64,000 bases of DNA from Oscillatoriales cyanobacterium Centralia_MAG_596 (lineage in GTDB: Bacteria > Cyanobacteriota > Cyanobacteriia > Leptolyngbyales > Leptolyngbyaceae), in NCBI GenBank assembly GCA_021323955.1, contig JAJPKC010000561.1, positions 8,234 through 72,233 on the forward strand, in the 5' to 3' direction. Below are positions 41,536 to 55,875 of this stretch, in pieces. Position 1 is the stretch's first letter; every line of letters begins with the position of its first letter. The position numbers and the translations under genes are program-made. Below the pieces are notes generated by a model. The model made no database searches. It worked only from the letters and a program-made list of their open reading frames with translations, and was not told the DNA's origin.

Positions 41536-43038
41536 CTACGCGGCAACGGGCAACGTTTGAACGGCATGTCGTGCTGCTTCGGCTGCGATCGCGTCGGGTG
41601 TAGGCAACACGGTCTGGTTCTGGGCCTCAAGATCACCAATTTGCCGTAACTCTTCCTTGATATCCGTGTCTGGTGGCAGCCATTTCCGCTCTTGCAGCAT
41701 TTGTAACCCGAGCTGGTTGCTAATCTTGACCCCCATCGCATCCAAAATGGTCTGTACTTCCTGGGGACTCGCAGGCGTTTGCAGAATAGACTCGTTGACA
41801 GTGATCGTGCCGCCCTGGTCTTCTCCGGTGTACTGCACCCAGAGCGCAAAAAGTCGCTGCACAGTGGATTCCTTCCGACGTGCCATGTTTTTCAGGCTGC
41901 ACTGGGTTTGGGCAGTGTCCATCACCACTTCCGTTGCCGTTTTTGCCGCTTCCCCGCCAGTCAAGAAGGCTAGGGACATCCGATCCATGGAGCGTTCCAG
42001 CTTTTCAATATCGGTTTGGGTGGCATTAATGGCATTGCCCGTTGGCTCCGCAAAGAAAAAGTCCCCGTCTGCGGGGATGTCTACAACAGAGTTGGGACCG
42101 ATGATCAGCTTGACCACGCCTTTCAGCAGATCAGCGAGGTTTTTGATCAATCCTTTACGCACGGGCACAGGTAGATTGCATTTATGAATCACCTCATTGA
42201 GGCTCGATCGTTTCTGATAATGCTCAATATTCAACTGAGCCAGATTGAGAAACGGAGGCTGACTTTCAAACCATTTGCTATCGCTAACCGAGTACCAGAC
42301 AAACGGCACAACTTCTAAACCTGTTGCGCCGGATAGCTCCGGTACTAAAACCTTCTGATATTTGCCGCCCTGGATCTGTACCAGTTCATAAACATCAAAT
42401 CTGCCAGGGGTTAGCACCCGATAGTAAGTTTTGGTTTCGACGCCATAATCATCTACTGCTACCAGGCGGCTTTCCTGAATTGTTAAGCGTTGAATGATCG
42501 GCTTACCTTGCTCATAGATAATGCTCCAGTTAAGGATGTTGCGTCGATCGACGGCAACGAGGTACGGTCGTAGCGCATAGTTTTGCTCGTCAGCCGCACT
42601 TTGGATCAGTGGGTTGCCATTTTCATCGGTGGGTTGTGGCGGATGCTCCACCAGAATGCCCATCCCGCCGTCCCGCAGTACTGTCTCATCCTGGTCTGTC
42701 AGAAATGATTCAATGCTGCTGCCTTGCAGGTCGATGTCGTCGCGTGCAGCGGCGATCGACGGTGCCACATCGTCAGATAGAACAAACTCAGATAACAGTC
42801 CGGCGTGACCCTTCAGCGCTGGCTTAAAGCGCGAGTCGAACTGTGTCCGGGCAAGACGGTTTTTGTACGCAAGCGGTGGTTCTTCCTCTTCTTTAGAGAG
42901 GTAATCGCCTTTGCAGCCCTTTAGCTCCTGCCACACATCCCAAACGATTTGCAGTTCGTTTGCCGCGTCGAGATACGTGGGGTGCAGGAAAGAAGGCAGC
43001 GATGGATCTTTGGTGAGTGCGGGGGAAGAGGGATTCAT
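41536..43038 (-). CDS. portal protein (DUF4055-type)
   Basis: YLSKEEEEPPLAYKNRLART..RRNILNW..PPFLNLAQLNIEHYQKRS..AKTATE. Confidence 0.9.
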   Translation of the reverse strand: MNPSSPALTKDPSLPSFLHPTYLDAANELQIVWDVWQELKGCKGDYLSKEEEEPPLAYKNRLARTQFDSRFKPALKGHAGLLSEFVLSDDVAPSIAAARDDIDLQGSSIESFLTDQDETVLRDGGMGILVEHPPQPTDENGNPLIQSAADEQNYALRPYLVAVDRRNILNWSIIYEQGKPIIQRLTIQESRLVAVDDYGVETKTYYRVLTPGRFDVYELVQIQGGKYQKVLVPELSGATGLEVVPFVWYSVSDSKWFESQPPFLNLAQLNIEHYQKRSSLNEVIHKCNLPVPVRKGLIKNLADLLKGVVKLIIGPNSVVDIPADGDFFFAEPTGNAINATQTDIEKLERSMDRMSLAFLTGGEAAKTATEVVMDTAQTQCSLKNMARRKESTVQRLFALWVQYTGEDQGGTITVNESILQTPASPQEVQTILDAMGVKISNQLGLQMLQERKWLPPDTDIKEELRQIGDLEAQNQTVLPTPDAIAAEAARHAVQTLPVAA

Positions 43039-43054: not shown

Positions 43055-43115
43055 TGGAAGCGATCGCTGAAAGCAGCTAAACTTAATCTAATTTCGTGGT
43101 TACTACTTACTAGGC

Positions 43116-43427
43116 TTGTCCATGAATCAGCCTGAGAATCAGCCTGACCTAAAGCGAATAGCTTGCAATTATGCGATCGCTACAAGTGCCTCTGCTAAAG
43201 GTAGTTTGGCGTATGTATTAAACCCAAACGCAGGAAACGGCTTTGAGCGCATGAAATTGTTGAGCCGATCGCGTGGTCATCGGTGGATTGAAATATGGGA
43301 GCCACTTGCCAGGCTAGAAAACTTTAGAGCAAAGACCATCTCGCCTGAAGATTCGCTTTATGTCAAATTGCTGCTGGCTTTTGATGATAGGCACTTAGAA
43401 GCGATTCAAGAAGTTGTTTGCAAGTGA
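43116..43427 (+). CDS. hypothetical protein
   Basis: 103-aa ORF. Confidence 0.55.
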   Translation: MSMNQPENQPDLKRIACNYAIATSASAKGSLAYVLNPNAGNGFERMKLLSRSRGHRWIEIWEPLARLENFRAKTISPEDSLYVKLLLAFDDRHLEAIQEVVCK

Positions 43428-43465
43428 TCCGCCACCTGCGCCGTGATCGCGGTTATTTGCGATCG

Positions 43466-43753
43466 CTACTCTAGTTCTGGAGTGCTGTCGTCGTCTTCTT
43501 CACCGTCAATGGGGTTCTCTTTCAACCATTTCGGATTCCGTATTAGTAGATCAAACAGTTCGTCAGGTTCCATGCCGCGTCGCTTGGCTGAATGTTCGAG
43601 TAACTCCTGAATGGATTGTTTGCGATCGCGAATTCTAAAGGCCAGAACCATAGTGGCTTGATCGCTTTTGGATCTGCCCGTAAGTGCTGCCCAAGCCGTT
43701 AGCCACTCGTCATCGTGTTCGCCTAGTGGACCGACTTGAAAACGTTTGGGCAT
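43466..43753 (-). CDS. RHH/CopG-like regulator
   Basis: RFQVGPL..DEWLTAWAALTGRSKSDQATMVL. Confidence 0.55.
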   Translation of the reverse strand: MPKRFQVGPLGEHDDEWLTAWAALTGRSKSDQATMVLAFRIRDRKQSIQELLEHSAKRRGMEPDELFDLLIRNPKWLKENPIDGEEDDDSTPELE

Positions 43754-43931
43754 AACTTTAACTATAAAGATATTGCATTATTGTACCGAACTTGTACCAG
43801 ATCGTTCGCTTTTACGAACAAGAGATTGTACTATGGCAATGTGCATCATGCGCGCAAGTTTGGGATAGCAGAGAGGATAGTTTGGTCGCTCCCTCCCTGC
43901 CAGTGCCCAGACTCCAGAGCAGTTAACCCTA

Positions 43932-44246
43932 GTGGAGTCCAAAACAATGTTATTACGCTTTTTCTCCTCCGTTCTGGGGGTGGCAGGCGCGATCGCTGTT
44001 TGTGCGATCGCGATTGCACCCATTGAAACTGTCGCCGCGCCAGCTTCAAGACCAGCTTCAAGATCGGCAAAGGTTTACAGTGCTGATATTGGCTGGAGTA
44101 AAGAGGTTGTAAAAAAGACGAACGGCGACCCTGATCGCAAGTCGAAAGACGGGCGAACCTGGTACTACGGAACAGGAAACAGGGTGTTCGTAGTTCATTT
44201 CAACGCTCAATGGAAGGTCGATCAGTTTCCGGGGGCGAAGGGATGA
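43932..44246 (+). CDS. secreted small protein
   Basis: N-terminal signal-peptide-like segment. Confidence 0.55.
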   Translation: MESKTMLLRFFSSVLGVAGAIAVCAIAIAPIETVAAPASRPASRSAKVYSADIGWSKEVVKKTNGDPDRKSKDGRTWYYGTGNRVFVVHFNAQWKVDQFPGAKG

Positions 44247-44542
44247 AATTTCTTCGCTTTCACTTGCTGCTTCTTTGTTCGATTGGATCAATTGCTGGCA
44301 TACAAATTGCCAGCGTTTTACTGGTTCAGCAAACCGCTTACGGCTACACATACCACTGGGGCGACTTGAACCGTGGGGCCGATTGGCTGGGGCAGCGAAT
44401 CAAGCGCTATCGCCCAGGCGATCTCAACTCATGGGCCGACACAATCGGCTTAAAGTTGCATAGTCGCTATTTGAATCGACATCGCCGTCCTGCCGTTTCA
44501 GTGCGATACCCAGACGCTTATAGGGACTGGGGTTCAAACTGA
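44243..44542 (+). CDS. secreted small protein
   Basis: MKFLRFHLLLLCSIG..AYG signal-like; ATGA-coupled. Confidence 0.55.
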   Translation: MKFLRFHLLLLCSIGSIAGIQIASVLLVQQTAYGYTYHWGDLNRGADWLGQRIKRYRPGDLNSWADTIGLKLHSRYLNRHRRPAVSVRYPDAYRDWGSN

Positions 44543-44614
44543 TCATTGTTGCAGGTCAGGGTGCTACTCTGGCCTGCATTCAGAATGCATTGAAATTAAA
44601 ACGGAGAAACCAAG

Positions 44615-45343
44615 ATGCGAACTACCCAAGCTTTAGCCGTTGCAATCGTATTGATGTCTCTACCAGGCTGTATGAGATCGGGTGAATTTGCGGTGCCTGC
44701 TCCTGCTGTTGGTGATATTGCCGAAGGGATTAGCAAGGCTTGGCAAGGGCAGGATCAAGCGCCTGCCACTGTTCCAGCTCAACCAGCACCGGCACCAGCT
44801 CAGCCGAATGTCCCCGCAACCGGGACAGCGATCGCGCTGTCTGAGATGCAAGCAAAACGGCACTCCAGAGCCAGCGCCGAGGATTTTCAAGAAATCGACG
44901 GGGTGAAAGAGGCTCACCCTGCTCGAAATGCGGGGGAGTGCGAAAGGCTAAGACTCTGGTTTTTTCAGCACAATCTTCGGTTGACACTGCGGATCAAGTC
45001 CAATCCAATGCCGGGAAACCGGCGACAAGTGCTCTGTGTCTTTCTTGGCAAAGACGCAAGGGCGAACCGCTTTGCCTACAACGATATGTATCGTGAAATT
45101 GGGATTCCGTACCCGGAGAGTGCCGCTGAGTACCCTGAAAATCCTTATGTTGATCGAACACACCCGTTTGAAAATCCCCCCAATGGGATTCCCAAATACA
45201 TTGAAGATCCGAATTGGCATGATACGCAGCGACTCCAGCCACAGCCCCCGCCGATTCCCGACGATACCGCTCCATTTACCGATGAAGATGCTGCGCGGTT
45301 GAGGGATCTTGACGAATACAATCGCAGACATCCAAAGCAGTAG
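44615..45343 (+). CDS. lipoprotein
   Basis: Signal peptide with lipobox LPGC; Pro-rich linker. Confidence 0.75.
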   Translation: MRTTQALAVAIVLMSLPGCMRSGEFAVPAPAVGDIAEGISKAWQGQDQAPATVPAQPAPAPAQPNVPATGTAIALSEMQAKRHSRASAEDFQEIDGVKEAHPARNAGECERLRLWFFQHNLRLTLRIKSNPMPGNRRQVLCVFLGKDARANRFAYNDMYREIGIPYPESAAEYPENPYVDRTHPFENPPNGIPKYIEDPNWHDTQRLQPQPPPIPDDTAPFTDEDAARLRDLDEYNRRHPKQ

Positions 45344-45375
45344 CTTATACTTTAGGGATACTTGAGAATCCAGCC

Positions 45376-45873
45376 ATGCAGCAACATTTGACGTTATTTG
45401 AACTTGCTGATCCCAACGCGGATAACGTAGACGCAATCATGAATGATGCCTGGTTCGTGGCGTCTCCACCTCAGATTGGTCAGATCGTTGAGTATGATGG
45501 CATCAAATGTAAGGTGCTGCAAACTTATAGCTATAAGGCTGCATCGTCTGAATTCAGTCTCACGCTTGCGATCATTCACCCCCCAGAACTAGAAGCGCCT
45601 GAGAAGCAGGATTGGTGGTGTAATTCGAGCGCTCGCGTTCAAGCGGAAGTAGGAGCAATGTCCTACGAGACGCGGCATATTTTCGTCAGCGAGAAAACAC
45701 AGACAATTTTTGACCTTGCCAGTGTCTACAGTTGGGATGATGACCTGGAGCCAACTGAGGCGAGTAGCGGATGGCAGATTAAGCAGTGCTACAAATTTGA
45801 GTGCGAAGACAGCCCGATAGCAGTGCTGTACGTAGCACACTGCATTAAGCAACGCGTGTTAGTCGCGGCTTGA
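45376..45873 (+). CDS. hypothetical protein
   Basis: 165-aa ORF preceded by AGGGATACT. Confidence 0.6.
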   Translation: MQQHLTLFELADPNADNVDAIMNDAWFVASPPQIGQIVEYDGIKCKVLQTYSYKAASSEFSLTLAIIHPPELEAPEKQDWWCNSSARVQAEVGAMSYETRHIFVSEKTQTIFDLASVYSWDDDLEPTEASSGWQIKQCYKFECEDSPIAVLYVAHCIKQRVLVAA

Positions 45874-45903
45874 GCCTCGACATTCGGCATTATTCACAAA
45901 ACA

Positions 45904-45931
45904 AAAGCCCCCGAATCACTCAGGGGGCTTT
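45904..45931. terminator. bidirectional terminator between convergent genes
   Basis: AAAGCCCCC-N10-GGGGGCTTT. Confidence 0.8.
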
Positions 45932-45976: not shown

Positions 45977-48900
45977 CTAATAACTGGGCTGTGACCGTAA
46001 TGCATTGCCTGTTTGCCGATTCTGGTAGTCGGCATAGCTTTCAACCGGATCCGTCGCGTGGAAGGTCAGCGATTTGGGGTTGCCCATGTCCTGCCGCATT
46101 AGTTCAATCACCATGTCTAGGCGTTGAGTTACCGCCGAGGTCAGGCTATCAAAGAAAGAACCCAGTCGATCGCCCGTCGAACCTGATGCTTCGACCACAC
46201 CGCTGCTGCGATCAGGAGCGGGCGTACTGGGTTGTGGTGAGAACGACGATCGGGTATCGCGTAACCCCCGATCGTCGTTGTAGTATCCTCCACGACGAGC
46301 ATAGTTGCCCGACTGCACACCATAGTTAGTCTGCACGCCACCACCGTTCAGCACCTTGTCTGGGTCTAACCCTGCTTCAACTCGTTCAGTAGCTTGACTG
46401 ACGGTGAGGTTTTGTTGCTCCTGGGCAGTTTGAGCAAAGGCTGTGTCACGCTCGACGTCGAATTTAGCTCTGGCATTCGCCTCCAGCTCACCGATTGCAG
46501 CGACCCCTTCCTGCGCTCCAGCAGTGTTTTGCTTGGCTAAGTCATAAGCTTGAAGAGAAGAATCCAGGTTGTCTTTCGCTTCAGCAATTTTTTCAGGATC
46601 GCCATTCTGAATGGCTTTCTTGAGTTCTCCTGTGCTCTTGGTGAAATCCTTTTTCGCGTTCAACTCCGCAATTTGAGCCTCTCGATATGCCTGCTCTGCC
46701 TGCAAGCGATCGCGCTTGAGATCCAATTCTAGAAGCTGTTGTTTGATGGCATATTCGGTTTGCAGCGCTCTTTCTTTAATGGCGGCAAGGTTCTTTTCAG
46801 CCGCCTCCTTTTGGTCAAGTAACCGTTCCCGATCGGTATCATCGTCGCCAGAAGGTTGAAAGCCCTGGGCACGTAAAATCTTTCGATAACCTTCCTGTTT
46901 ATTTGGGTCCTGTTCCTGGGTCGATTTGTTGAAGAGATCCAGGATTTTCGATGCACTGTCCGCCGCACCTTGCGCGATTGTCTGGTTGTAAGCAGCGACC
47001 GCCTGCTGCAAATCACCCCGGCTCTGCGTTAATTTGCGAGTGATTTCAAGTGATTGGTTAATACGGTCGATCGCTGCCTTCTGGCGCTCGTAGCCACGAA
47101 TGGCCACATTGTCAGCGCGATTTTGGGCATTGACTTGCTTATCAATTTCGCGGTTGTAAATGTCCTGAAGCTGTTTCTGGCGCTGGATTTGGAGATCTAC
47201 AAGTTTGCCATTGCTCTCTGCTAACTGCTGGTTAAACTCCAGCAATTTTTGCGTTAGCTCTTTACCAGAAATTCGTTTTTCAGCGGCGGCTCGCTTATAG
47301 TCAACAATCTCCTTTTGCAATAGCTGAGAACGCTGCTGGGTGGCTCTTTCATCTACTCCGGTTTGTTCCAGATCAGCTTGCTTTTGGGCATCGTCGGTTA
47401 GCCCTGCTGCCAGGAATTTTCGCTTAACCGCAGTCGATTGGTTAGTTTCTGATAGTTGAATAGCGGCGGCGGCTTTTGCATTGGCTAACTCCAACCCTTC
47501 AATGATTCTACGGTTGGTCGCTTCCACCTTCTTTGCCAGTGCCTCCTCCACCGTCGCCGCCGCGTTAGCTTTTTCAACGCGCAGGTCTGCCAACTGTGTC
47601 GTCAACTCACGTTGGCGCTTGTTAAACTCTTCAGCGCTGAGCTGGTCTTTCTTGGCATTTAACTCCTCCAAGGACTGCTGCGTGTTGTCGGTCTTCTGAT
47701 CGATTGAAGTAGCTTGATTTTGAGCAGTCTTAATGCCAATGTCCGCTTCTGCTACTGCGGCATCTGACTCGCTGAAAAATTTGTTATTGGCCTTGTCTCG
47801 TGCCAGGTCAGCGCTGGCCTGACGCACTGGAACAGCACGGGCATCGTCATCCTGCTTGAGCTTCTGGTCGCGCTTCGTTGCATCGCGATCGAGCACAGCC
47901 AGTGTATTTGTTTGAACCTGATCCTGCACCTTCAAATCAGCTTCGTCCAAATTGACCTGCAAATCACCGCGCTTCTGTTGCAACTCCTTGAAGTTCAACA
48001 ATTGCTGGAGCAAGGTGCGTTTGGCCTTTCCAGAATCGTCTTGGGGTGTGGCTTCTAGCTCTTTTTTAATATCTTCAATCGAATTATCTTTACTGACGCC
48101 AAACCCCCTCAACGCGGCTTCGTTTTCAGGTCGATCAAGCAATGTCCCGCCATCTTTCAATGCCTTATCAGTACTGTCCAAATTTTGTTGGATACCCTGA
48201 CGGTCGGAAATTGCATTGCTGAGTGCGGCGCTGCGGGCCGCGTCCTCATCGGTACCAAACGTTTTGAGTTGACCCTTGAGAATGAAATCTTTCTGTTGAC
48301 TGACGAAAAGTTTCGTTGCACGTTCGGCACTCTCGATCGCTGCTGCCAAATTTCTGAAGCCGTCGGTCATACCCAAAATGGGATCGACCTTCAGTGACCC
48401 CAATTTTTCCTCAGCCTGATTCTTAAAGTCGGTGACGTCTTTGAGCGATTGCTGGAGCTGCTTACGCCGTTCCTCCGTTTGAGCTTTATTGCCAAAATGC
48501 CCTTCATTTTTGGGGTCATCCAGCTCTTTCAACTTTGACTTGTAAGCGTCGATCAGTTTATTAGCTGAGTTCAGGTCGTCAGTAAATGGCTTCGCTGCGT
48601 CACCGCGCTTGTCCACAAGGCTCTGAATGTTAGTGTTGGCATCCTGAAGCTGTTGTTGAAGCGCCGCCGGAATGGTCTTTCCTTTGCGGGTATAGTCTTG
48701 CTCCGCTTGGGCTTGCAGACTCTTACGCTGCTGTTCAGCATTCTGAAGCTGTTGATCAATCGCCTGTAAATCAGCCCCTTCTCCGGTTTTAGTGTCCAGG
48801 GTTGTGAGACGAGCACGACCTTTAGATAGGAGTTGACCTGTTTCACTGACTGATTTATCGATGTCACCACCGACGCGATCACGCTCCACATCGCCAAAGT

Positions 48901-51900
48901 TGCGGAAGGTCGTTTTACTGCCAACAAGCTTGGGATGATTTGGATCGCTGAAATCAATATTGCCGCGGGTCAAAACGTCTAATGGTCCTGCTAACGGCGC
49001 GGGCTTTTCGGCATCTTCTTTTGCCTCCTGCTTCGAGTTGTCCGGTTTTTCTGGTTGTCCGGGAAGTTTCACCTCTTTTGAGTTGTCAGCCGCCCGTTTG
49101 GCAGAATCGGCTAAGTCATCAAACGACTTCACCAACTCGGTGTTAATGGTTTCGGACAATAATCTGAAATATTCAATCAGCGCAAAAATGCCCACAGCAC
49201 CAATGACGGCTTTCGAGGTGTTGAGCGTTTGAAAGAACGATTGCAATCCTCCAATCGCAGTGCCAGTAGCTGCTTTGGTGAGAATTAAATCACCAATCAA
49301 TTTAAATAGTGCGGGTGCCGTTTGGACACCAATGGTGAGGGCGATCGCCGTTAGCCCTGCAATGATCTCAGGCGCGATCGCTGTCACTCCTTGCAGCACC
49401 GATGTGAGGATTTTGAATCCAACCACTGACCCTGGCTGCAACTCCTTACCAACAGTTTGCTGGAGGGTTAGGTAAGCGTTTTGAAATCTGAAAATCGCGC
49501 TCTGTGCATTGTCGCCAGCCGTTTTGGCTGCGTCACCAAATTCGGCTTGTAGCTGCTTTCCGAATCGGGGTAGAAAATCATCTGCCAGCAAAGAGCCCGT
49601 TTCGAGCATCTTGTTCAACTGGGCCTCGGTGACCCCCATTGCTCGTGCTGCAATGCCTAATGCTCCGGGAATGCGTTCACCTAATTGCCCCCGTAGCTCC
49701 TCAGCCTGGACGGAGCCTTTGGACGCAATTTGGGTCAGCGCTGACAAGGAACCACCTGTCTGTTCAGCGGATAGCCCCAACACAGTGGAAGCTTGCTCAA
49801 TCCCTAAAAAGACATCTTTGGTCGTTTTGCCCGCTGCGGCTGTGCCCCGTGTTGCCGCCGAGAGTTGGCTAAAACCTTCAATAGATGATTCTAATGGCGT
49901 CCCCAAGTCCGCCACTGTCTTGCGAACAAACTCCAGACTCTGAGTGCCCTGGCTAGCACCCCCCACAGAAAAATCGAGCGCTGTTTTGAGGTTGTCCAAC
50001 TTGATGGATGCGTTGATTGCATCGGCGGATAGCCCCTGGAAAAGCTGCTGGATTGAACCAATAACCTGGAAGCCGATCGACTGCACTAATTGCAGCCCCA
50101 CAAATCCAGCCAAAAATCCAGCGGTAGCCCCTTTTGCTTTCTCTAAAAGGTTAGATAGGGTTGCTAAACCACCGGGATTAGTAGGTGCCGGACGATCGAG
50201 CAGTGCATAGACACTCCGCAACTCCTTGCTGAACCCTTGCAGTGCCGAAATATCTTTGCTGGTCACTTGTGCAGCAGGTTTTGCCAGAATGGCTTCCGAA
50301 CCAGCAATGGCTCGTTCAGTGCGATCGCCTGCTTTTCGTAGCCGCGTTTCCTGGGTTCTGTCGCCCGATCCTTTTGCAACCGCCTGGCCGGTACGGATAT
50401 CGTTCAACAGGCTCTTGCTTTCAACAGCCAGCGCTTCAGCATCCTTTGCAACAGCGGCGCGAATATCAGCCTGAACACCTTTCAAGACATTTCGTAAGGT
50501 GCTAAACACACCCTTGAAGTCATCACCGGCGATCGGGTCTTCAATGCGTGTTAAGCCTGGATCAGCCGCTTCCCCGGTTTGGCGCTCTAACTCAAAGGCG
50601 CGACGTTTGTTTGCTCGCAGATCTTGCTGGTTTTCGCCAATGACTTGCTGCGACTTTGCCTGGGTGCCGTCATTAATCGCCCGGTCTGCCAGTAGCCCAA
50701 AGTCAGGTCGAGCAGCGGTCTTAGCGGCAATACGTTGCCCGATCTCCAGCAGCTCCTGATTGGCGCGAGTCATCTCCGCATCAAACGTTTCGTTGATGAT
50801 CTCCCCACGTTCTTCTAGCAGTCGTTCAACGGTTTGGTTGAGCTGATTGAGTGCCCGAATCTCCTGTTTGCCTGCATGTCCGGCGTAGTCTTTATCGCTG
50901 GAGAGCGCCAGGGCTAGATTGTCAATCGTGTCTCCAAGTTGCTTCTCCAACTGCGAAAGCAACTGTCGAGATTTGCTGGTAAGAGTGCGTTTTAGCCCAG
51001 TTGCACCGCCAACCAGATTGGCCGACTCTAAATCTTCGCCGCTTGCCTTCGCTTCATCGTCCTCTCCCAACCGGCCCTGGATGCGTTGCCGCAATTTGCT
51101 CAATTGAGGAACGGCTGCCAGTGCAACTGCTGCTCCTTTGAGCGGCACCCCGCCCAACCCTGGAATAGCACCCAATGCTGCGGCTGAAGCGTTCCCGATC
51201 GCAAATCCAGCCAGGTCGCCGAACAACTCATCCCCCTGCCCGTGCTGTCCTCCTGAAAGGACATGCCGTGCCGTGATCGCCCCAATCAAATCGCCTGCGG
51301 CTCCACCAACTGCCCCACCAAAGTGGTTGCCTGCTACCGATGCCGCAAAGCCTGCCGTATTGACCAGCAAATCTCGCCCTTTGGGAGTGTTCGCGGCTTT
51401 TTGCAGTGTGGCCGGCAACGTTGCCTCTGGTTCAATTTCAGCAAAGCGAGCAACCTCGCGTCCGATAGTTTCGGCGAGGCTGTGTTGTGCCTGATTAAAT
51501 CGCTCGATCGCAGCACTCAGTTCGCGGTTGACCGCTTGCCCACCTTCACGCAGCGATGCCAGCAAGTTGGCTGCATTCAGGTCATCGCCTGCGGAAACAT
51601 CGACGACTGTAGCGTTAACGGTTTGAAAGTTTCGTGAAGTGCTGCCCTGACGTTGGGTCTGCTGAATTTGTTGGCGTGCCACGTCACGTGCTTCTGCCCT
51701 GGGTGCTTCCGACTTTTGAATCGCCTGTGTCCGAAAACCTGAGAGCTGTTGGGCAGTCCTGCCTTCAATCTGGTATTGCTTGAATGCGTCTTCAATTGCG
51801 GCAACCTGTTGATCCGAAGCCGTTGCTAGTGCTTGAGCGATCGCAACGCGTTCCTGTCCCTGCGCCGCCTGGAACTGTTTGTAAAGCTGCTTGATCTTGT

Positions 51901-54900
51901 CATTCGACTTTTGAATCGCCGTGAGCGCTGAGGCTGGCAATGTTGGCACAGCCGCGCTTTTAGCCCCATCTTGAAACGCTTTGAGTTTCGCACTGTCACC
52001 AACTTCAGCTAATACCTTGTCGATCGACACGCCAAAGTCAGTAAACGCTAACTCGCGCGCCAGGTCTTCTTTCTTCAGGCTCCTCGCCCGTGAACTGGTA
52101 ATACCAACGCGCTTGGCAATCTCGCGCAAACCAGCGGCGGAATACTGGCTATTGAGTTCTTCAAACCGCTGTTCTTTGCCGCTGGGACTCGATACGACTT
52201 CAACTTGAGGGCTTTGAGCTGATGCAGGCGACGGCGGCAACGCGGTAATGGCGCTCTCAGGTGTGTTAGCCGGTGCTGGAGGAAGTGCTTTTGCCTGGGT
52301 TGGAGGAAGTGCTGCTAAATTGTTAACCGCTTGCGCTGCGCCACCCAATGTGCGACCCGCAGCCGTTTGAATGACTTTGCCACCCAGCAGGGCCGCACCA
52401 GCCTGAGCCACTCCGGCTGAGGCCGCGTTAACGGCACTATCAATCGCCCCTGTCAGCGCTGTGGTAATGCCGTTCGCCAATCCAAACGCATTAGGCACAT
52501 GACCTGCGATCGCTGACGTTGCTGCGTCGGTTGCCCCTGCACCGGCTGCATGGAGTAACGGCGATGCCACTCCGCCAACGACATGACTCAGCCCTGCTGC
52601 GACACTCGCACCACCGGGAAGTAATGCCGTTGCGCCCGCAAACAAGGCGGCAGGCACAACCGTTTGTTGGGCGATCGCTTTGATTGCTCGTCCGGCTGGA
52701 ACAAGATCCAGCGCCAGGGCTTCCATGCCGGACGCAACGGTATAACCCACCTTCCCAACAGCCAATAGCGCCTTGCCTGCGGTTCCTGCTGCCTGTACTG
52801 CATTTTGCACAGGTGCAGAGGTTGCTATGTCCTGGACTTTGCTGGCTGTCGCGCCTGCCAGTTCAACGGCTCCTCTGGCAACGCCCCCGGCTGTTTGAGC
52901 CAGTGCCGCACGTTGTTCCTGCCGCTCTAATTGCTGCTGTGCTTTGGTTCTAGTCAGTTCAAAAACTTTTGGCTCTAACTGCCTGGGGTCAGCGGTTGTC
53001 GTTAGCTGCTGAATTAGCTCCTTTTTCTTAAGAGAGCCAGCATCTTGGACGCCAAATTGCTCCGCCAGTGGCGTTAGCTCTTTCTTACTAAATTGCTTGA
53101 GCAGTCCAGCAAGTTCCTGCTGCCGCTCTTGGAGTGCGTCTTCAGGAGCGATCGCCTGCACGCGTTGAATCTCGCTTCGCACCTGGTCGAAGATGTGGCT
53201 GAGGGAACCGATCGCCTGGTTCATTTCTTCCTGCAATGCAGCAACTTCTTCGCGAGTTGCCGTGCCTGCCGATTGGGCCGCTCTTTGAGAAATTGATTCG
53301 ATCTCGGTGAGCGACTCTTTGTAGCTGTCGATGAACTGGCCGATTGCCTCATCCGATTCCACAAATCGCTTTGAGGCTTCTTGTTTAAGGGTGATCAGTG
53401 CGTCTTTGAAAACCGCCTTGCGTGCAGGAGCCGTAAACTTCTCACCCTGAACTGCCACATCGCTGGCATCGCTGATTGCTTGCAGCCGATCCTGCCGTTG
53501 CAGGTAATCTTCGGCCCCCCTTGCGCCCTTGACTTTGGCGTTTAGCTCTGCCTCTCGTTTTTCGGGTGCATACCGCCCTAGCTCTGGTGCAAACCTGGTT
53601 GCTTCTTCGGCTGTAGGAGTAACTTTGCGCCCGATCGGACGGCTATCTTTCGCTGCCTGGATGCCCTTGAAAGACCCAAAATCGAAGTCTTCAGCGTGGG
53701 CAATCTCTTCCCCTAATACCTCTGCCTGTTGCTGCGTTAGGGATGCGCTTTTGACCGCCTCATAAATTTTGTTGGTCGTGATGATGGCATTTTCAGCCGG
53801 GACGTAAAGTGACCCTGCGCCAACGGCTTTAAGCCGCGCTTCGTCAACAACTAATTTGGGCAGTTTGTCAGCATCAAAGGCTTCACCAAGCGTGCTTTGA
53901 GCCAGTTCGGCGTAAGCCCTGGACTGTTGCTGCGGGCTAACCTGATCGAGTTGTTGTCGTGCGGCAAGGCGTTTCTGCTTTGCCTCTTGCACGGCATTGG
54001 TGGCAATATCCCGTGCCTGTACCAGTGCAGTGAGGGACTGCGATAGCTGCTGAAAGTCCTGTGCTGTGGCATTAAGTTGAGCGGCTAATGGTTCAATGTC
54101 TGCAACCTTAGCCCCGCCTGCCTCCGCTTTCTGAATGGCGATCGCGAGCTGCTCGTATTGTTGCCCTACTTCTGCAACCTCTCGCTGTCTGACGGCAATC
54201 TGCTGTTCTAATGTGGCTTTGCTCTGTGTAGCGCGAGCTTCGACACTTTTGCTGGTGGCGATCGATTCACGAAATTCGGTAACTGCTTCCTCTCTCAAGA
54301 CAGGAGTTTTGGCTTGCTCCGTCTGCCTACGCTGCCCCCGCTGGAATAATCCTTCCCGATTGATATTGTCTTGACCGATCGTCCCTTGAACGGCTTGCCC
54401 AACTTGCCCAGGCAGCTCAACCACTGACTGAAGCTGTTCTCGCAGTTTGGTTCGTAGTTTGCCGTCCTGAATTTTGTCGATCTGCTGTTCCAGTACCTGA
54501 GCCAGGTTCTGAGTTTGAGTTTGAAACTCCTGCACTACGGCAGAACCGATTGCACCCCCAACCTTCTCCCCCAACAGTTCGGAACTGCCAACGCTCTTAG
54601 ACAGTGCTCCTTCCAGTGCGGTAGACAGTCCCTTACCCAAATTCCGCGAGACTTCCTGGGTGGCTCCTAGCGTTAGACCACTCAAGGTAGTGCTCAAAGC
54701 GCCGCCTGCCAGCTTGAGCGGAGCCGTCAGCACACTGCCTAATCCACTGAGTAATCCTCCACCCTTAACCCGCTGAAATGCTCGTTCAACGCTGTTACCC
54801 AGCGAGTCTTCAATGCCCTTCGTGTCAATCTCAACCTTTTGGGTCAGAGCTGCTAAGGGTTGGGCATTGGCGTAGCGGAGAACCACTGGCACATCTAAGG

Positions 54901-55447
54901 TGCCGATCTGCGATCGCAGATCGGCGACATTGACCTGTGCGTCAATGGTGACTTTATAGCTACTGGTCTGGAACGATTGCAGCCGTCGCTCCAGGGCGTC
55001 TAGTTGCTGAAAATCAACTCGCGGTGTTAGCGGGGAGCTTTTGAAATAGGCATTGACTTGAGCAAAGTGCCTTTGCTTGAGGTCTAAATGTTTGTTGAGG
55101 GCCGTGAGCTGGCTATCATCAACCAGCGCCGACAGCTTTAGAGTCCGTTCCCCTGCAAAGCGTTTGAGTTGCTGTTCCGCTGCGGCCGTATCCAGTCTGG
55201 CGGTGACAACAACTGTGGCACTGAATGCCTGCAACTGTTTCTCTAGGGCGCTAGTATCGGCACGTAGCCCTACAGTGAGTGGATTAAGAGCGATTCCCTT
55301 AAGCTGGCGTTCAAGTTGCTGAAGGTTGAGATTCACCCCCAACGCGATCGGCTTCAGCGCTAGCGTCTCTAGATCGCGCAGATCACGATTGAATCGACTC
55401 CGATCTAACTGCAACTCAATCGCAGCACTGCCAACGACTTCACTCAT
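45977..55447 (-). CDS. tape measure protein, multidomain (3156 aa)
   Basis: Tape-measure domain IKLDNLKTAL..GSVQAEELRGQLGERIPGALGIAARAMGVTEAQLNKMLETG; N-terminal VGSAAIELQLDRSRF; long coiled coils. Confidence 0.92.
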   Translation of the reverse strand: MSEVVGSAAIELQLDRSRFNRDLRDLETLALKPIALGVNLNLQQLERQLKGIALNPLTVGLRADTSALEKQLQAFSATVVVTARLDTAAAEQQLKRFAGERTLKLSALVDDSQLTALNKHLDLKQRHFAQVNAYFKSSPLTPRVDFQQLDALERRLQSFQTSSYKVTIDAQVNVADLRSQIGTLDVPVVLRYANAQPLAALTQKVEIDTKGIEDSLGNSVERAFQRVKGGGLLSGLGSVLTAPLKLAGGALSTTLSGLTLGATQEVSRNLGKGLSTALEGALSKSVGSSELLGEKVGGAIGSAVVQEFQTQTQNLAQVLEQQIDKIQDGKLRTKLREQLQSVVELPGQVGQAVQGTIGQDNINREGLFQRGQRRQTEQAKTPVLREEAVTEFRESIATSKSVEARATQSKATLEQQIAVRQREVAEVGQQYEQLAIAIQKAEAGGAKVADIEPLAAQLNATAQDFQQLSQSLTALVQARDIATNAVQEAKQKRLAARQQLDQVSPQQQSRAYAELAQSTLGEAFDADKLPKLVVDEARLKAVGAGSLYVPAENAIITTNKIYEAVKSASLTQQQAEVLGEEIAHAEDFDFGSFKGIQAAKDSRPIGRKVTPTAEEATRFAPELGRYAPEKREAELNAKVKGARGAEDYLQRQDRLQAISDASDVAVQGEKFTAPARKAVFKDALITLKQEASKRFVESDEAIGQFIDSYKESLTEIESISQRAAQSAGTATREEVAALQEEMNQAIGSLSHIFDQVRSEIQRVQAIAPEDALQERQQELAGLLKQFSKKELTPLAEQFGVQDAGSLKKKELIQQLTTTADPRQLEPKVFELTRTKAQQQLERQEQRAALAQTAGGVARGAVELAGATASKVQDIATSAPVQNAVQAAGTAGKALLAVGKVGYTVASGMEALALDLVPAGRAIKAIAQQTVVPAALFAGATALLPGGASVAAGLSHVVGGVASPLLHAAGAGATDAATSAIAGHVPNAFGLANGITTALTGAIDSAVNAASAGVAQAGAALLGGKVIQTAAGRTLGGAAQAVNNLAALPPTQAKALPPAPANTPESAITALPPSPASAQSPQVEVVSSPSGKEQRFEELNSQYSAAGLREIAKRVGITSSRARSLKKEDLARELAFTDFGVSIDKVLAEVGDSAKLKAFQDGAKSAAVPTLPASALTAIQKSNDKIKQLYKQFQAAQGQERVAIAQALATASDQQVAAIEDAFKQYQIEGRTAQQLSGFRTQAIQKSEAPRAEARDVARQQIQQTQRQGSTSRNFQTVNATVVDVSAGDDLNAANLLASLREGGQAVNRELSAAIERFNQAQHSLAETIGREVARFAEIEPEATLPATLQKAANTPKGRDLLVNTAGFAASVAGNHFGGAVGGAAGDLIGAITARHVLSGGQHGQGDELFGDLAGFAIGNASAAALGAIPGLGGVPLKGAAVALAAVPQLSKLRQRIQGRLGEDDEAKASGEDLESANLVGGATGLKRTLTSKSRQLLSQLEKQLGDTIDNLALALSSDKDYAGHAGKQEIRALNQLNQTVERLLEERGEIINETFDAEMTRANQELLEIGQRIAAKTAARPDFGLLADRAINDGTQAKSQQVIGENQQDLRANKRRAFELERQTGEAADPGLTRIEDPIAGDDFKGVFSTLRNVLKGVQADIRAAVAKDAEALAVESKSLLNDIRTGQAVAKGSGDRTQETRLRKAGDRTERAIAGSEAILAKPAAQVTSKDISALQGFSKELRSVYALLDRPAPTNPGGLATLSNLLEKAKGATAGFLAGFVGLQLVQSIGFQVIGSIQQLFQGLSADAINASIKLDNLKTALDFSVGGASQGTQSLEFVRKTVADLGTPLESSIEGFSQLSAATRGTAAAGKTTKDVFLGIEQASTVLGLSAEQTGGSLSALTQIASKGSVQAEELRGQLGERIPGALGIAARAMGVTEAQLNKMLETGSLLADDFLPRFGKQLQAEFGDAAKTAGDNAQSAIFRFQNAYLTLQQTVGKELQPGSVVGFKILTSVLQGVTAIAPEIIAGLTAIALTIGVQTAPALFKLIGDLILTKAATGTAIGGLQSFFQTLNTSKAVIGAVGIFALIEYFRLLSETINTELVKSFDDLADSAKRAADNSKEVKLPGQPEKPDNSKQEAKEDAEKPAPLAGPLDVLTRGNIDFSDPNHPKLVGSKTTFRNFGDVERDRVGGDIDKSVSETGQLLSKGRARLTTLDTKTGEGADLQAIDQQLQNAEQQRKSLQAQAEQDYTRKGKTIPAALQQQLQDANTNIQSLVDKRGDAAKPFTDDLNSANKLIDAYKSKLKELDDPKNEGHFGNKAQTEERRKQLQQSLKDVTDFKNQAEEKLGSLKVDPILGMTDGFRNLAAAIESAERATKLFVSQQKDFILKGQLKTFGTDEDAARSAALSNAISDRQGIQQNLDSTDKALKDGGTLLDRPENEAALRGFGVSKDNSIEDIKKELEATPQDDSGKAKRTLLQQLLNFKELQQKRGDLQVNLDEADLKVQDQVQTNTLAVLDRDATKRDQKLKQDDDARAVPVRQASADLARDKANNKFFSESDAAVAEADIGIKTAQNQATSIDQKTDNTQQSLEELNAKKDQLSAEEFNKRQRELTTQLADLRVEKANAAATVEEALAKKVEATNRRIIEGLELANAKAAAAIQLSETNQSTAVKRKFLAAGLTDDAQKQADLEQTGVDERATQQRSQLLQKEIVDYKRAAAEKRISGKELTQKLLEFNQQLAESNGKLVDLQIQRQKQLQDIYNREIDKQVNAQNRADNVAIRGYERQKAAIDRINQSLEITRKLTQSRGDLQQAVAAYNQTIAQGAADSASKILDLFNKSTQEQDPNKQEGYRKILRAQGFQPSGDDDTDRERLLDQKEAAEKNLAAIKERALQTEYAIKQQLLELDLKRDRLQAEQAYREAQIAELNAKKDFTKSTGELKKAIQNGDPEKIAEAKDNLDSSLQAYDLAKQNTAGAQEGVAAIGELEANARAKFDVERDTAFAQTAQEQQNLTVSQATERVEAGLDPDKVLNGGGVQTNYGVQSGNYARRGGYYNDDRGLRDTRSSFSPQPSTPAPDRSSGVVEASGSTGDRLGSFFDSLTSAVTQRLDMVIELMRQDMGNPKSLTFHATDPVESYADYQNRQTGNALRSQPSY

Positions 55448-55534: not shown

Positions 55535-55798
55535 GTGAACGGATCTTCTGTACCCAAGTCGATTCAGCGTCTTCGAATTGGGCTAATTATTGGCTTTGTG
55601 CTGCTGACGTTTAGCAGTTGTGGTTATTGGGTCGGTCGTCCCTGGACGTGCGGGCAAGCAAAAGACATGCTGAAAGCAGAAGAAGCAGATACGCCTCGAT
55701 TTGACAGCTCCGACGTAGCCGCAACCGTCACCAAAACACAATCCCACGTTTATGCGCTCCAGGACGCGCACGCAAATGTTGAACGACTGTGTTATTGA
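55535..55798 (+). CDS. small membrane protein
   Basis: One TM helix; GTAGGAACGC upstream. Confidence 0.55.
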   Translation: MNGSSVPKSIQRLRIGLIIGFVLLTFSSCGYWVGRPWTCGQAKDMLKAEEADTPRFDSSDVAATVTKTQSHVYALQDAHANVERLCY

Positions 55799-55875
55799 TC
55801 TGACTTCACCGTAAGCAATCGTTTCAAAGTGCCACGTACTGCCTAAAATCAAGGCTGTAGCGTTCTAGAGTTGAT

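Follow-up and report, generated by a model that had tools for sequence, protein, structure and literature searches.

A zincin-type module in the front half of a giant tape measure protein from a cyanobacterial phage region

Zincin peptidases are the commonest domain of the injected polyvalent proteins described by Iyer, Burroughs, Anand, de Souza and Aravind in 2017 (PMC5512222), where helix-extension-helix (HeH) domains of the Rho-N/SAP kind are found occasionally and where the zincins have been proposed to act in self-processing, the favoured role, or after injection. Tail rulers that carry an enzyme are known as well, such as Pb2 of T5, which combines a muralytic metallopeptidase motif with hydrophobic stretches and is cleaved in assembly, and cleavage of the tape measure is established in both lambda and T5. 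We analysed a stretch of 64,000 nucleotides from Oscillatoriales cyanobacterium Centralia_MAG_596 (assembly GCA_021323955.1, contig JAJPKC010000561.1, positions 8,234 to 72,233 of the forward strand), hereafter called the window, in which one minus-strand gene encodes a protein of 3156 aa. The product is, on sequence evidence, a tail tape measure protein, and its N-terminal, head-proximal half harbours a module of zincin type.

The protein shares with the polyvalent proteins (PMC5512222) its giant size, its expected place in the virion and a build in which one to three minimal zincins, each with an HExxH helix and a later Glu helix, stand among other modules. It differs from them as the carrier is a tape measure (the word 'tape' is absent from that paper), as the zincin and HeH motifs sit on a structural carrier with no other effector domain detected by Pfam, and as the first His of the zincin motif is replaced by Glu; some relatives of the protein come nearer to the polyvalent type by adding an M23 peptidase or extra zincin copies. 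With T5 Pb2 it has in common the plan of a tail ruler with an enzyme and hydrophobic stretches, but the Pb2 enzyme is C-terminal, tip-proximal and wall-acting, whereas the zincin of the window lies in the N-terminal, head-proximal half, where a muralytic role is unlikely. By sequence and fold, the module itself is best matched by DUF6782, SprT-like (PF10263) and minigluzincins such as selecase (4qhi), with which it shares the strand and HExxH-helix core. SprT uses a third His, whereas the window-type module keeps a distal Glu. The general theme of tape measures with embedded enzymes and of polyvalent injected proteins is thus known; what appears new is a sizeable and distinct domain family, its fixed N-terminal position and a stable Glu-first subclade, and a tape measure with such a module is not described in the most pertinent papers found by a search of part of the literature.

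Pfam returned just two matches on the 3156-aa protein, TMP_3 and Rho_N, the former far above its cut-off. The PHROG tape-measure families and the solved tape measures 9ndy_F and 9zd7 matched from about aa 1790 onward only, and a search of PDB sequences with the whole protein gave nothing beyond tape measures for the core. An earlier reading made from the letters of the DNA, the sequence-only reading, had placed the start of the recognisable tape-measure domain near residue 1810 (~50.0 kb), which agrees with the boundary found by Pfam. It had also pointed to an N-terminal extension of ~1800 aa; this is present but is not peculiar to the gene, being the standard build of a large family.

The zincin-type module occupies ~145 aa of this front part. 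The two strings on which the sequence-only reading had based a zincin-like EExxH motif at ~53.7 kb, GSLYVPAENAII (aa 545-556, 53780-53815) and EEIAHAEDFDFG (aa 580-591, 53675-53710), are in place and fall within this conserved domain. Across seven full-length homologues (2881-3495 aa, to 26% identity), one of them annotated from Trichocoleus desertorum, the residues Y548, N553, I555, L578, E581, H584, G591 and the pair P611-T612 were invariant, and two distant homologues carried HELTH and HEIVH at the position of the EEIAH of the window. When a profile of aa 509-652 was run against 1.84 billion representative proteins, 160 protein clusters at 50% identity were retrieved at E<=1e-3 and 87 at E<=1e-10, nearly all of them of 2500-5500 aa. 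In the 175 domain copies tallied from 157 of these proteins, the first motif position was His in 118 and Glu in 52, the catalytic Glu (E581) was kept in 171/173 and the second His (H584) in 170/173, position 587 was Gln in 110 and Asp in 62, and the motif was followed by a Phe-Gly pair with the Gly (G591) present in 172/172. The Tyr and Asn of the upstream strand (Y548, N553) were conserved in 94-98% of the 175 copies. Besides, E634 of an E-x-x-A motif about 50 residues downstream, which lies in helix 120-143 of the structure model, was invariant in two MAFFT alignments (A1 and A3). As the key residues are invariant in distant homologues and this strongly conserved over the family, EEIAH is no chance motif.

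In a Pfam scan of 52 family members the only families that recurred were zincins: DUF6782 in 13 members (best E 1.4e-6), SprT-like in nine, DUF3920 and Peptidase_M91 in six each, M90 in four, BSP in three and Tox-MPTase3 in two. On re-examination of ten members, one reached a DUF6782 score of 28.2 against the cut-off of 27 and the others 15-25 bits, the matches spanning only profile positions ~30-118 of 241, which is the strand and motif-helix core. The nine SprT-like matches (E 0.002-0.03, ~15 bits) stayed below the cut-off of 25.6. AlphaFold2, given the seven-sequence alignment, modelled the module with a mean predicted local distance difference test (pLDDT) score of 92.8 and a predicted template modelling (TM) score of 0.89, the elements being ordered as a helix, three strands, the motif-bearing helix and a later long helix with E634. 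This is the order that Iyer et al. (PMC5512222) give for the zincin core, namely an N-terminal helix, three strands, the active-site helix and a later Glu helix, so the model has the topology of a zincin fold. Foldseek against the PDB ranked the minigluzincin selecase (4qhi), the metallopeptidase effector VgrG2b and deuterolysin at the top, all at E values of at least 0.89. Against BFVD the best matches were small Synechococcus phage proteins (E 8e-3, probability 1.0, TM score 0.54), followed by a 'proteolytic enzyme', an IrrE-N-like protein (E 0.033), SprT proteins and an N4-like virion RNA polymerase. The AlphaFold check suggested with the sequence-only reading has thus given a confident model of zincin topology, and the fold-match scores are weak yet lean consistently toward zincins. 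We therefore regard the module as a minimal domain of gluzincin type which forms a family of its own, outside the Pfam families listed above.

More specific relatives did not hold up. DUF4157, the HExxH domain associated with extracellular contractile injection systems, had been suspected from the HExxHxxQ pattern and was dropped, as it was not among the Pfam families matched by the 52 members, and MPTase-PolyVal (PF18818) did not recur among those matches either. The sequence-only reading had likened the EExxH variant to the EELGH of ImmA/IrrE-type proteins; this has no support from Pfam, as Peptidase_M78 was not among the 25 families matched by most members, and the commoner state in the family is HExxH, with Glu being specific to a clade.

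The window carries not HExxH but EEIAH, with E580 in place of the first His, and we asked of the family tree how this state is distributed. A tree of 168 modules required only 5 changes between His and Glu, against 43 with shuffled labels, and the window fell in an all-Glu clade of 32 modules (Shimodaira-Hasegawa-like approximate likelihood ratio test support 95). The tree is deep-branched, with a median terminal branch of 0.7 substitutions per column and more than 1 substitution per site between members of the Glu clade. From this distribution the Glu-for-His replacement is an old, stable and clade-defining state. The 52 Glu-first copies keep E581 in 52/52, H584 in 52/52 and E634 in 50/52, where decay would be expected in a dead site, so the site is probably still used. 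In all likelihood it continues to work as a metal site, although its preference among metals may have changed.

The placement of the module is as regular as its sequence. TMP_3 was found in 132/138 family proteins longer than 2000 aa, and the zincin lay N-terminal to it in 131/132 of these, its presence throughout being true by construction as the set had been gathered with the zincin profile. The median length of the family is 3190 aa and the median start of TMP_3 is aa 1494. The module was present in 5/401 genomes sampled from the phylum of the window, the genome of the window itself among them, as well as in Leptolyngbya sp. FACHB-36. It also occurred in nine viral contigs of IMG/VR (9-114 kb), of which seven measured at least 50 kb. 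It was absent from 50,697 deposited phage genomes searched by tblastn with three different module sequences and by megablast. This is a large family of tape measures of ~3000 aa, uncatalogued so far, and its sources, where named, are cyanobacterial genomes and viral contigs.

The only cultured phage with detectable similarity among those 50,697 records is Cylindrospermopsis raciborskii virus CrV-01T (MH636380). Its gp064, annotated as a tape measure and 4416 aa long, resembles the protein of the window by having TMP_3 mid-protein (aa 1961-2135) and by sharing the N-terminal domain, which the window profile matched at aa 2-110 with E 3e-16, but it lacks the zincin module and does not contain [HE]ExxH anywhere. 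As the same build occurs without the zincin, a long stretch before TMP_3 is the normal build of these giant tape measures.

Some relatives are more elaborate. Two or three zincin copies, all upstream of TMP_3, occur in P0010, P0015, P0018, P0036, P0050 and P0057, which in this way resemble polyvalent proteins with several MPTase domains. Peptidase_M23 is found C-terminal to TMP_3 in P0015 (aa 2221-2342) and P0034 (aa 2042-2129), with none detectable in the protein of the window; in such relatives wall cutting would be handled elsewhere in the protein than by the zincin. Cluster P0019 was labelled 'muramidase' by its source, and Pfam showed no such domain there. In a genome of the same taxonomic family as the window (G294, contig C69, 13921-17321) the homologous gene was met as two frames of 1024 and 2017 aa (L006 and L009), each with a zincin copy; either the tape measure is split or frameshifted there, or an assembly error may have broken a protein with two copies. 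The homologue of 3495 aa in Trichocoleus desertorum (CP116619, 4864764-4895251) stands by itself, flanked by genes for a DDE transposase and an HNH endonuclease, with no recognisable virion gene within 10 kb on either side, and may belong to a decayed or rearranged prophage.

We also compared how lengths vary within 125 proteins of the family. The coefficient of variation was 0.17 for the total length, less than for the parts before (0.26) and after (0.28) TMP_3, and the lengths of the two parts were negatively correlated (Spearman -0.28, p 0.0014), although it tells against leaning on this statistic that it is not corrected for phylogeny and takes in a few truncated sequences. Conservation of the total over that of either half fits selection on total length, with the whole protein as the ruler, and the data lean towards such a ruler and a tail of ~470 nm. 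The arithmetic of the sequence-only reading was correct (3156 x 0.15 = 473 nm for the whole protein and 1347 x 0.15 = 202 nm for its C-terminal part). Its picture of an ejected protein of polyvalent type that may process itself is in line with Iyer et al. (PMC5512222), whereas a tail of ~200 nm left after removal of the front half is disfavoured by the conservation of total length. Among cultured long-tailed cyanophages, Aphanizomenon phage CL131 has a tail of 361 nm (PMC6293099) and a tape measure of 2131 aa (as annotated in its record, length confirmed), and Mic1 has a tail of 400 nm and a largest ORF (open reading frame) of 2572 aa (PMC7156551), presumed to be its tape measure; both come to ~1.6-1.7 Å per residue. 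A tail of 450-500 nm would be long, yet in line with these two phages. In CL131 (MG209611, 41716-54576) three consecutive ORFs of 330, 1811 and 2131 aa together amount to ~4270 aa, the record likening the first to a protein with a tape-measure domain from cyanobacteria and annotating the last as the tape measure. We considered these three (gp047-gp048-gp049) as a natural 'split' version of the protein, but none showed similarity to it with any profile or by BLASTP, and CL131 is used as a yardstick of length only.

Apart from the zincin, the front half carries HeH motifs. The first of the two HeH-like segments of the sequence-only reading, FSKKELTPLAEQFGVQDAGSLKKKELIQQL (aa 786-815, 53003-53092; ~53.05 kb), was confirmed as a Rho_N match just over the cut-off of 24.9; it is borderline, with 25.2 bits in the whole protein and 23.8 bits as an isolated segment, and is conserved in six homologues (P0001-P0006). 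The second, YSAAGLREIAKRVGITSSRARSLKKEDLARE (aa 1102-1132, 52052-52144; ~52.1 kb), is in place and aligned to the profile of the first by hhalign with 86.8% probability (E 4e-6), but it remained below the Rho_N threshold and found no fold match. Its AlphaFold2 model is a helix, a short element and a helix (13-23, 27-32, 35-44) at moderate confidence (pLDDT 73), and Foldseek gave no significant match with this model, FAN1, which has a SAP domain, appearing at E 4.8-7.6. We regard it as a probable true HeH. It is restricted to the clade of the window (P0001-P0005), the only clade with two HeH motifs. With an iterated HeH profile, motifs were detected in 21/158 family proteins, and 21/26 of the motifs lay between zincin and TMP_3; by these profile matches HeH is a recurrent but optional accessory of the family.

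Taking these lines together, we give a probability of about 0.6 to the reading that the protein is the tape measure of a temperate cyanophage or phage-plasmid, that it carries an embedded zincin, that its whole length acts as the ruler and that it cuts itself after ejection. The whole protein would fill the tail lumen and set a very long tail (~0.45-0.5 µm), and at infection it would be expelled C-terminus first, with the Gly/Ala-rich, charge-free hydrophobic stretches (aa 924-1002 and 2006-2099) possibly helping to form the conduit. The front half would leave last, beside the leading end of the DNA, which the HeH motifs may hold. The zincin would then act on its own tape measure, either in cis or from one copy to another within the tail, thereby freeing the DNA end or releasing pieces; a host protein is a less likely target. 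The same role has been put forward for zincins in polyvalent proteins that are injected. For this tape measure, protease activity, processing of itself and binding of DNA are predictions.

Several observations weigh against this reading. The module of the window matched no zincin or peptidase family in Pfam (best unrelated match E 0.06), sequence searches of the PDB with profiles of 7 and of 52 module sequences found no match, and structure searches there gave nothing below the E of 0.89 already mentioned. The canonical first His is absent, and a literature search found no zincin peptidase with Glu in its place. That E580, H584 and E634 converge on one site is a prediction. The tail lumen is narrow, and three folded domains of 16 kDa would have to be accommodated there or else be unfolded. 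The gene is also distant from other tail genes rather than in the usual tail-module position after the tail tube and chaperone genes, and tail tube, sheath, chaperone, Dit and Tal genes were not recognised in the phage region with PHROGs and Pfam.

Some of this evidence can be accommodated otherwise. The zincin might be an injected effector that cuts a host protein of defence, regulation or DNA binding and is held on DNA by the HeH motifs, like the DNA-dependent proteases of the SprT/Wss1 type. Among the weak Pfam relatives are effector and conflict zincins (Peptidase_M91, Tox-MPTase3, SprT-like, M90), VgrG2b is among the fold matches, HeH motifs recur beside the zincin and Iyer et al. (PMC5512222) give such action as the alternative role. 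We nevertheless consider an effector unlikely, since the module keeps a single, constant position within a structural protein, since its tree is deep-branched, since HeH is detectable in just those 21/158 proteins and since the front half of the tape measure would have to reach the cytoplasm, a presumed step. A combination of the two ideas is more speculative and is held at low likelihood: the head-proximal half would be a protease tethered to DNA and carried into the cell together with the leading end, HeH clamping that end while the zincin clears DNA-bound or defence proteins of the host or cuts itself off the DNA, with Mn or Fe perhaps replacing Zn in the Glu-first clade, a logic like that of Spartan/Wss1. 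Loss of the first metal ligand, the lack of any peptidase family match for the copy of the window and the missing precedent for a Glu-first zincin peptidase would suit a dead enzyme whose fold is kept in this clade for a structural purpose, such as a stopper or docking knob where the ruler faces the head. This appears quite improbable, as 50-52 of the 52 Glu-first copies retain each of the three remaining catalytic positions despite more than 1 substitution per site between clade members, and as Glu is a common metal ligand; in the ZIP8/ZIP14 transporters the same change of HEXXH to EEXXH is thought to broaden metal specificity and not to abolish binding (PMC5661630), although this is an analogy only.

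Two further explanations concern the ruler. The front ~1800 aa could be removed before tails are assembled or in the course of assembly, perhaps through the zincin, leaving the C-terminal ~1350 aa to measure a tail of ~200 nm. In ordinary tape measures the usual distance of TMP_3 from the N-terminus is ~250 aa, as judged from profile and PDB positions, and the tape measures of lambda and T5 are cleaved in morphogenesis, yet those known cleavages are near the C-terminus, total length is better conserved than either half with the halves negatively correlated, and the N-terminal domain is conserved even in CrV, which lacks the zincin, as expected if the true N-terminus ends the ruler; we hold such removal to be rather doubtful. 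It is very improbable that the protein is no tail ruler at all but a polyvalent ejection protein packed in the capsid and bearing a TMP_3-like segment. The isolation of the gene from other tail genes, beside a partition operon and upstream of the portal, the failure to recognise tail tube, sheath or chaperone and the similar isolation of the Trichocoleus homologue would accord with packing in the capsid, but TMP_3 scores well over its cut-off and solved tape measures are matched, tail-fibre genes are present, and the long-tailed cyanophage CrV has an annotated tape measure of the same build, with N-terminal domain, hydrophobic stretches and long helical C-terminal part.

Should the module be active, as the favoured tape measure reading supposes, then a whole family of long-tailed cyanophages has a protease at the rear of the protein which enters the cell ahead of the DNA. 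Besides measuring, pore forming and wall cutting, tape measures would then have one more function, and they would be tied to the strategy of polyvalent proteins, so far known mainly from capsid-packed and conjugative proteins. The stable switch from HExxH to EExxH with the other catalytic residues kept is a natural experiment on the plasticity of the zincin metal site, and the ~145-aa module, a clean and well-folding but uncatalogued family of 160 clusters at 50% identity, is a candidate for the domain databases. Tails near half a micrometre are predicted for these phages.

Table 1. Positions of the tape measure gene, its domains and motifs, and an adjoining terminator-like element in the window.
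Feature	Residues (aa)	Window position	Strand	Basis
Giant tape measure protein gene		45977..55447	-	Single uninterrupted ORF, 3156 codons and stop; full-length homologues 2881-3495 aa
N-terminal domain, short repeated strand-helix units	1-215	54803..55447	-	Profile found in 97/157 family proteins
Zincin-type (gluzincin-like) metallopeptidase module, ~145 aa	509-652	53492..53923	-	Family profile, AlphaFold2 model, fold matches
Active-site motif E580-E581-I-A-H584-A-E-D587-F-D-F590-G591, EExxH variant of HExxH	580-591	53675..53710	-	Column tallies of 175 copies
E634, candidate third metal ligand (E-x-x-A637, later helix)	634	53546..53548	-	Invariance in alignments; proposed ligand role
HeH motif 1 (Rho_N-like)	783-812	53012..53101	-	Pfam PF07498, 25.2 bits against cut-off 24.9
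Gly/Ala-rich, hydrophobic, charge-free long stretch	924-1002	52442..52678	-	Hydropathy and charge-free scan
HeH motif 2 (probable)	1098-1134	52046..52156	-	Rho_N 16.1 bits, E 0.011, sub-threshold
TMP_3 tape measure core	1810-1997	49457..50020	-	Pfam PF20155, E 7e-26, 91.6 bits against cut-off 41
Hydrophobic segments right behind the TMP_3 core	2006-2099	49151..49432	-	Hydropathy scan
Terminator-like hairpin and T-run		45908..45926	-	~50 nt past the stop codon; pattern scan

Of the parts outside the zincin, the first long hydrophobic stretch also recurs in the family, a profile of aa 880-1030, which includes it, being detected in 62/157 proteins. The surroundings of the gene are those of a phage, with portal (41536..43038), scaffold, major head protein and tail-fibre genes all on the same strand as the tape measure gene. 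Upstream of it lie a ParA gene of a parA partition operon and a sigma factor gene, and downstream small ORFs of the opposite strand and then the portal. These plus-strand ORFs (44615..45343, 45376..45873 and smaller ones) fill the interval 43100-45900, from where the tape measure gene stops to where the portal gene starts; the one tested, 44615..45343 (+), had no PHROG match. As this block separates the tape measure gene from the head genes, the former appears to be a transcription unit of its own. The terminator-like hairpin behind its stop codon is weak alone, with 1 site observed against 0.9 expected in shuffles. Just upstream of the gene, at the usual spot of a tail chaperone, a candidate ORF of 89 aa with a TTG start (55583-55852, -) was noted, without a PHROG match. 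On the opposite strand inside the giant gene (49509-51637, +) several ORFs of 80-144 aa were seen, most likely as by-products of the long frame.

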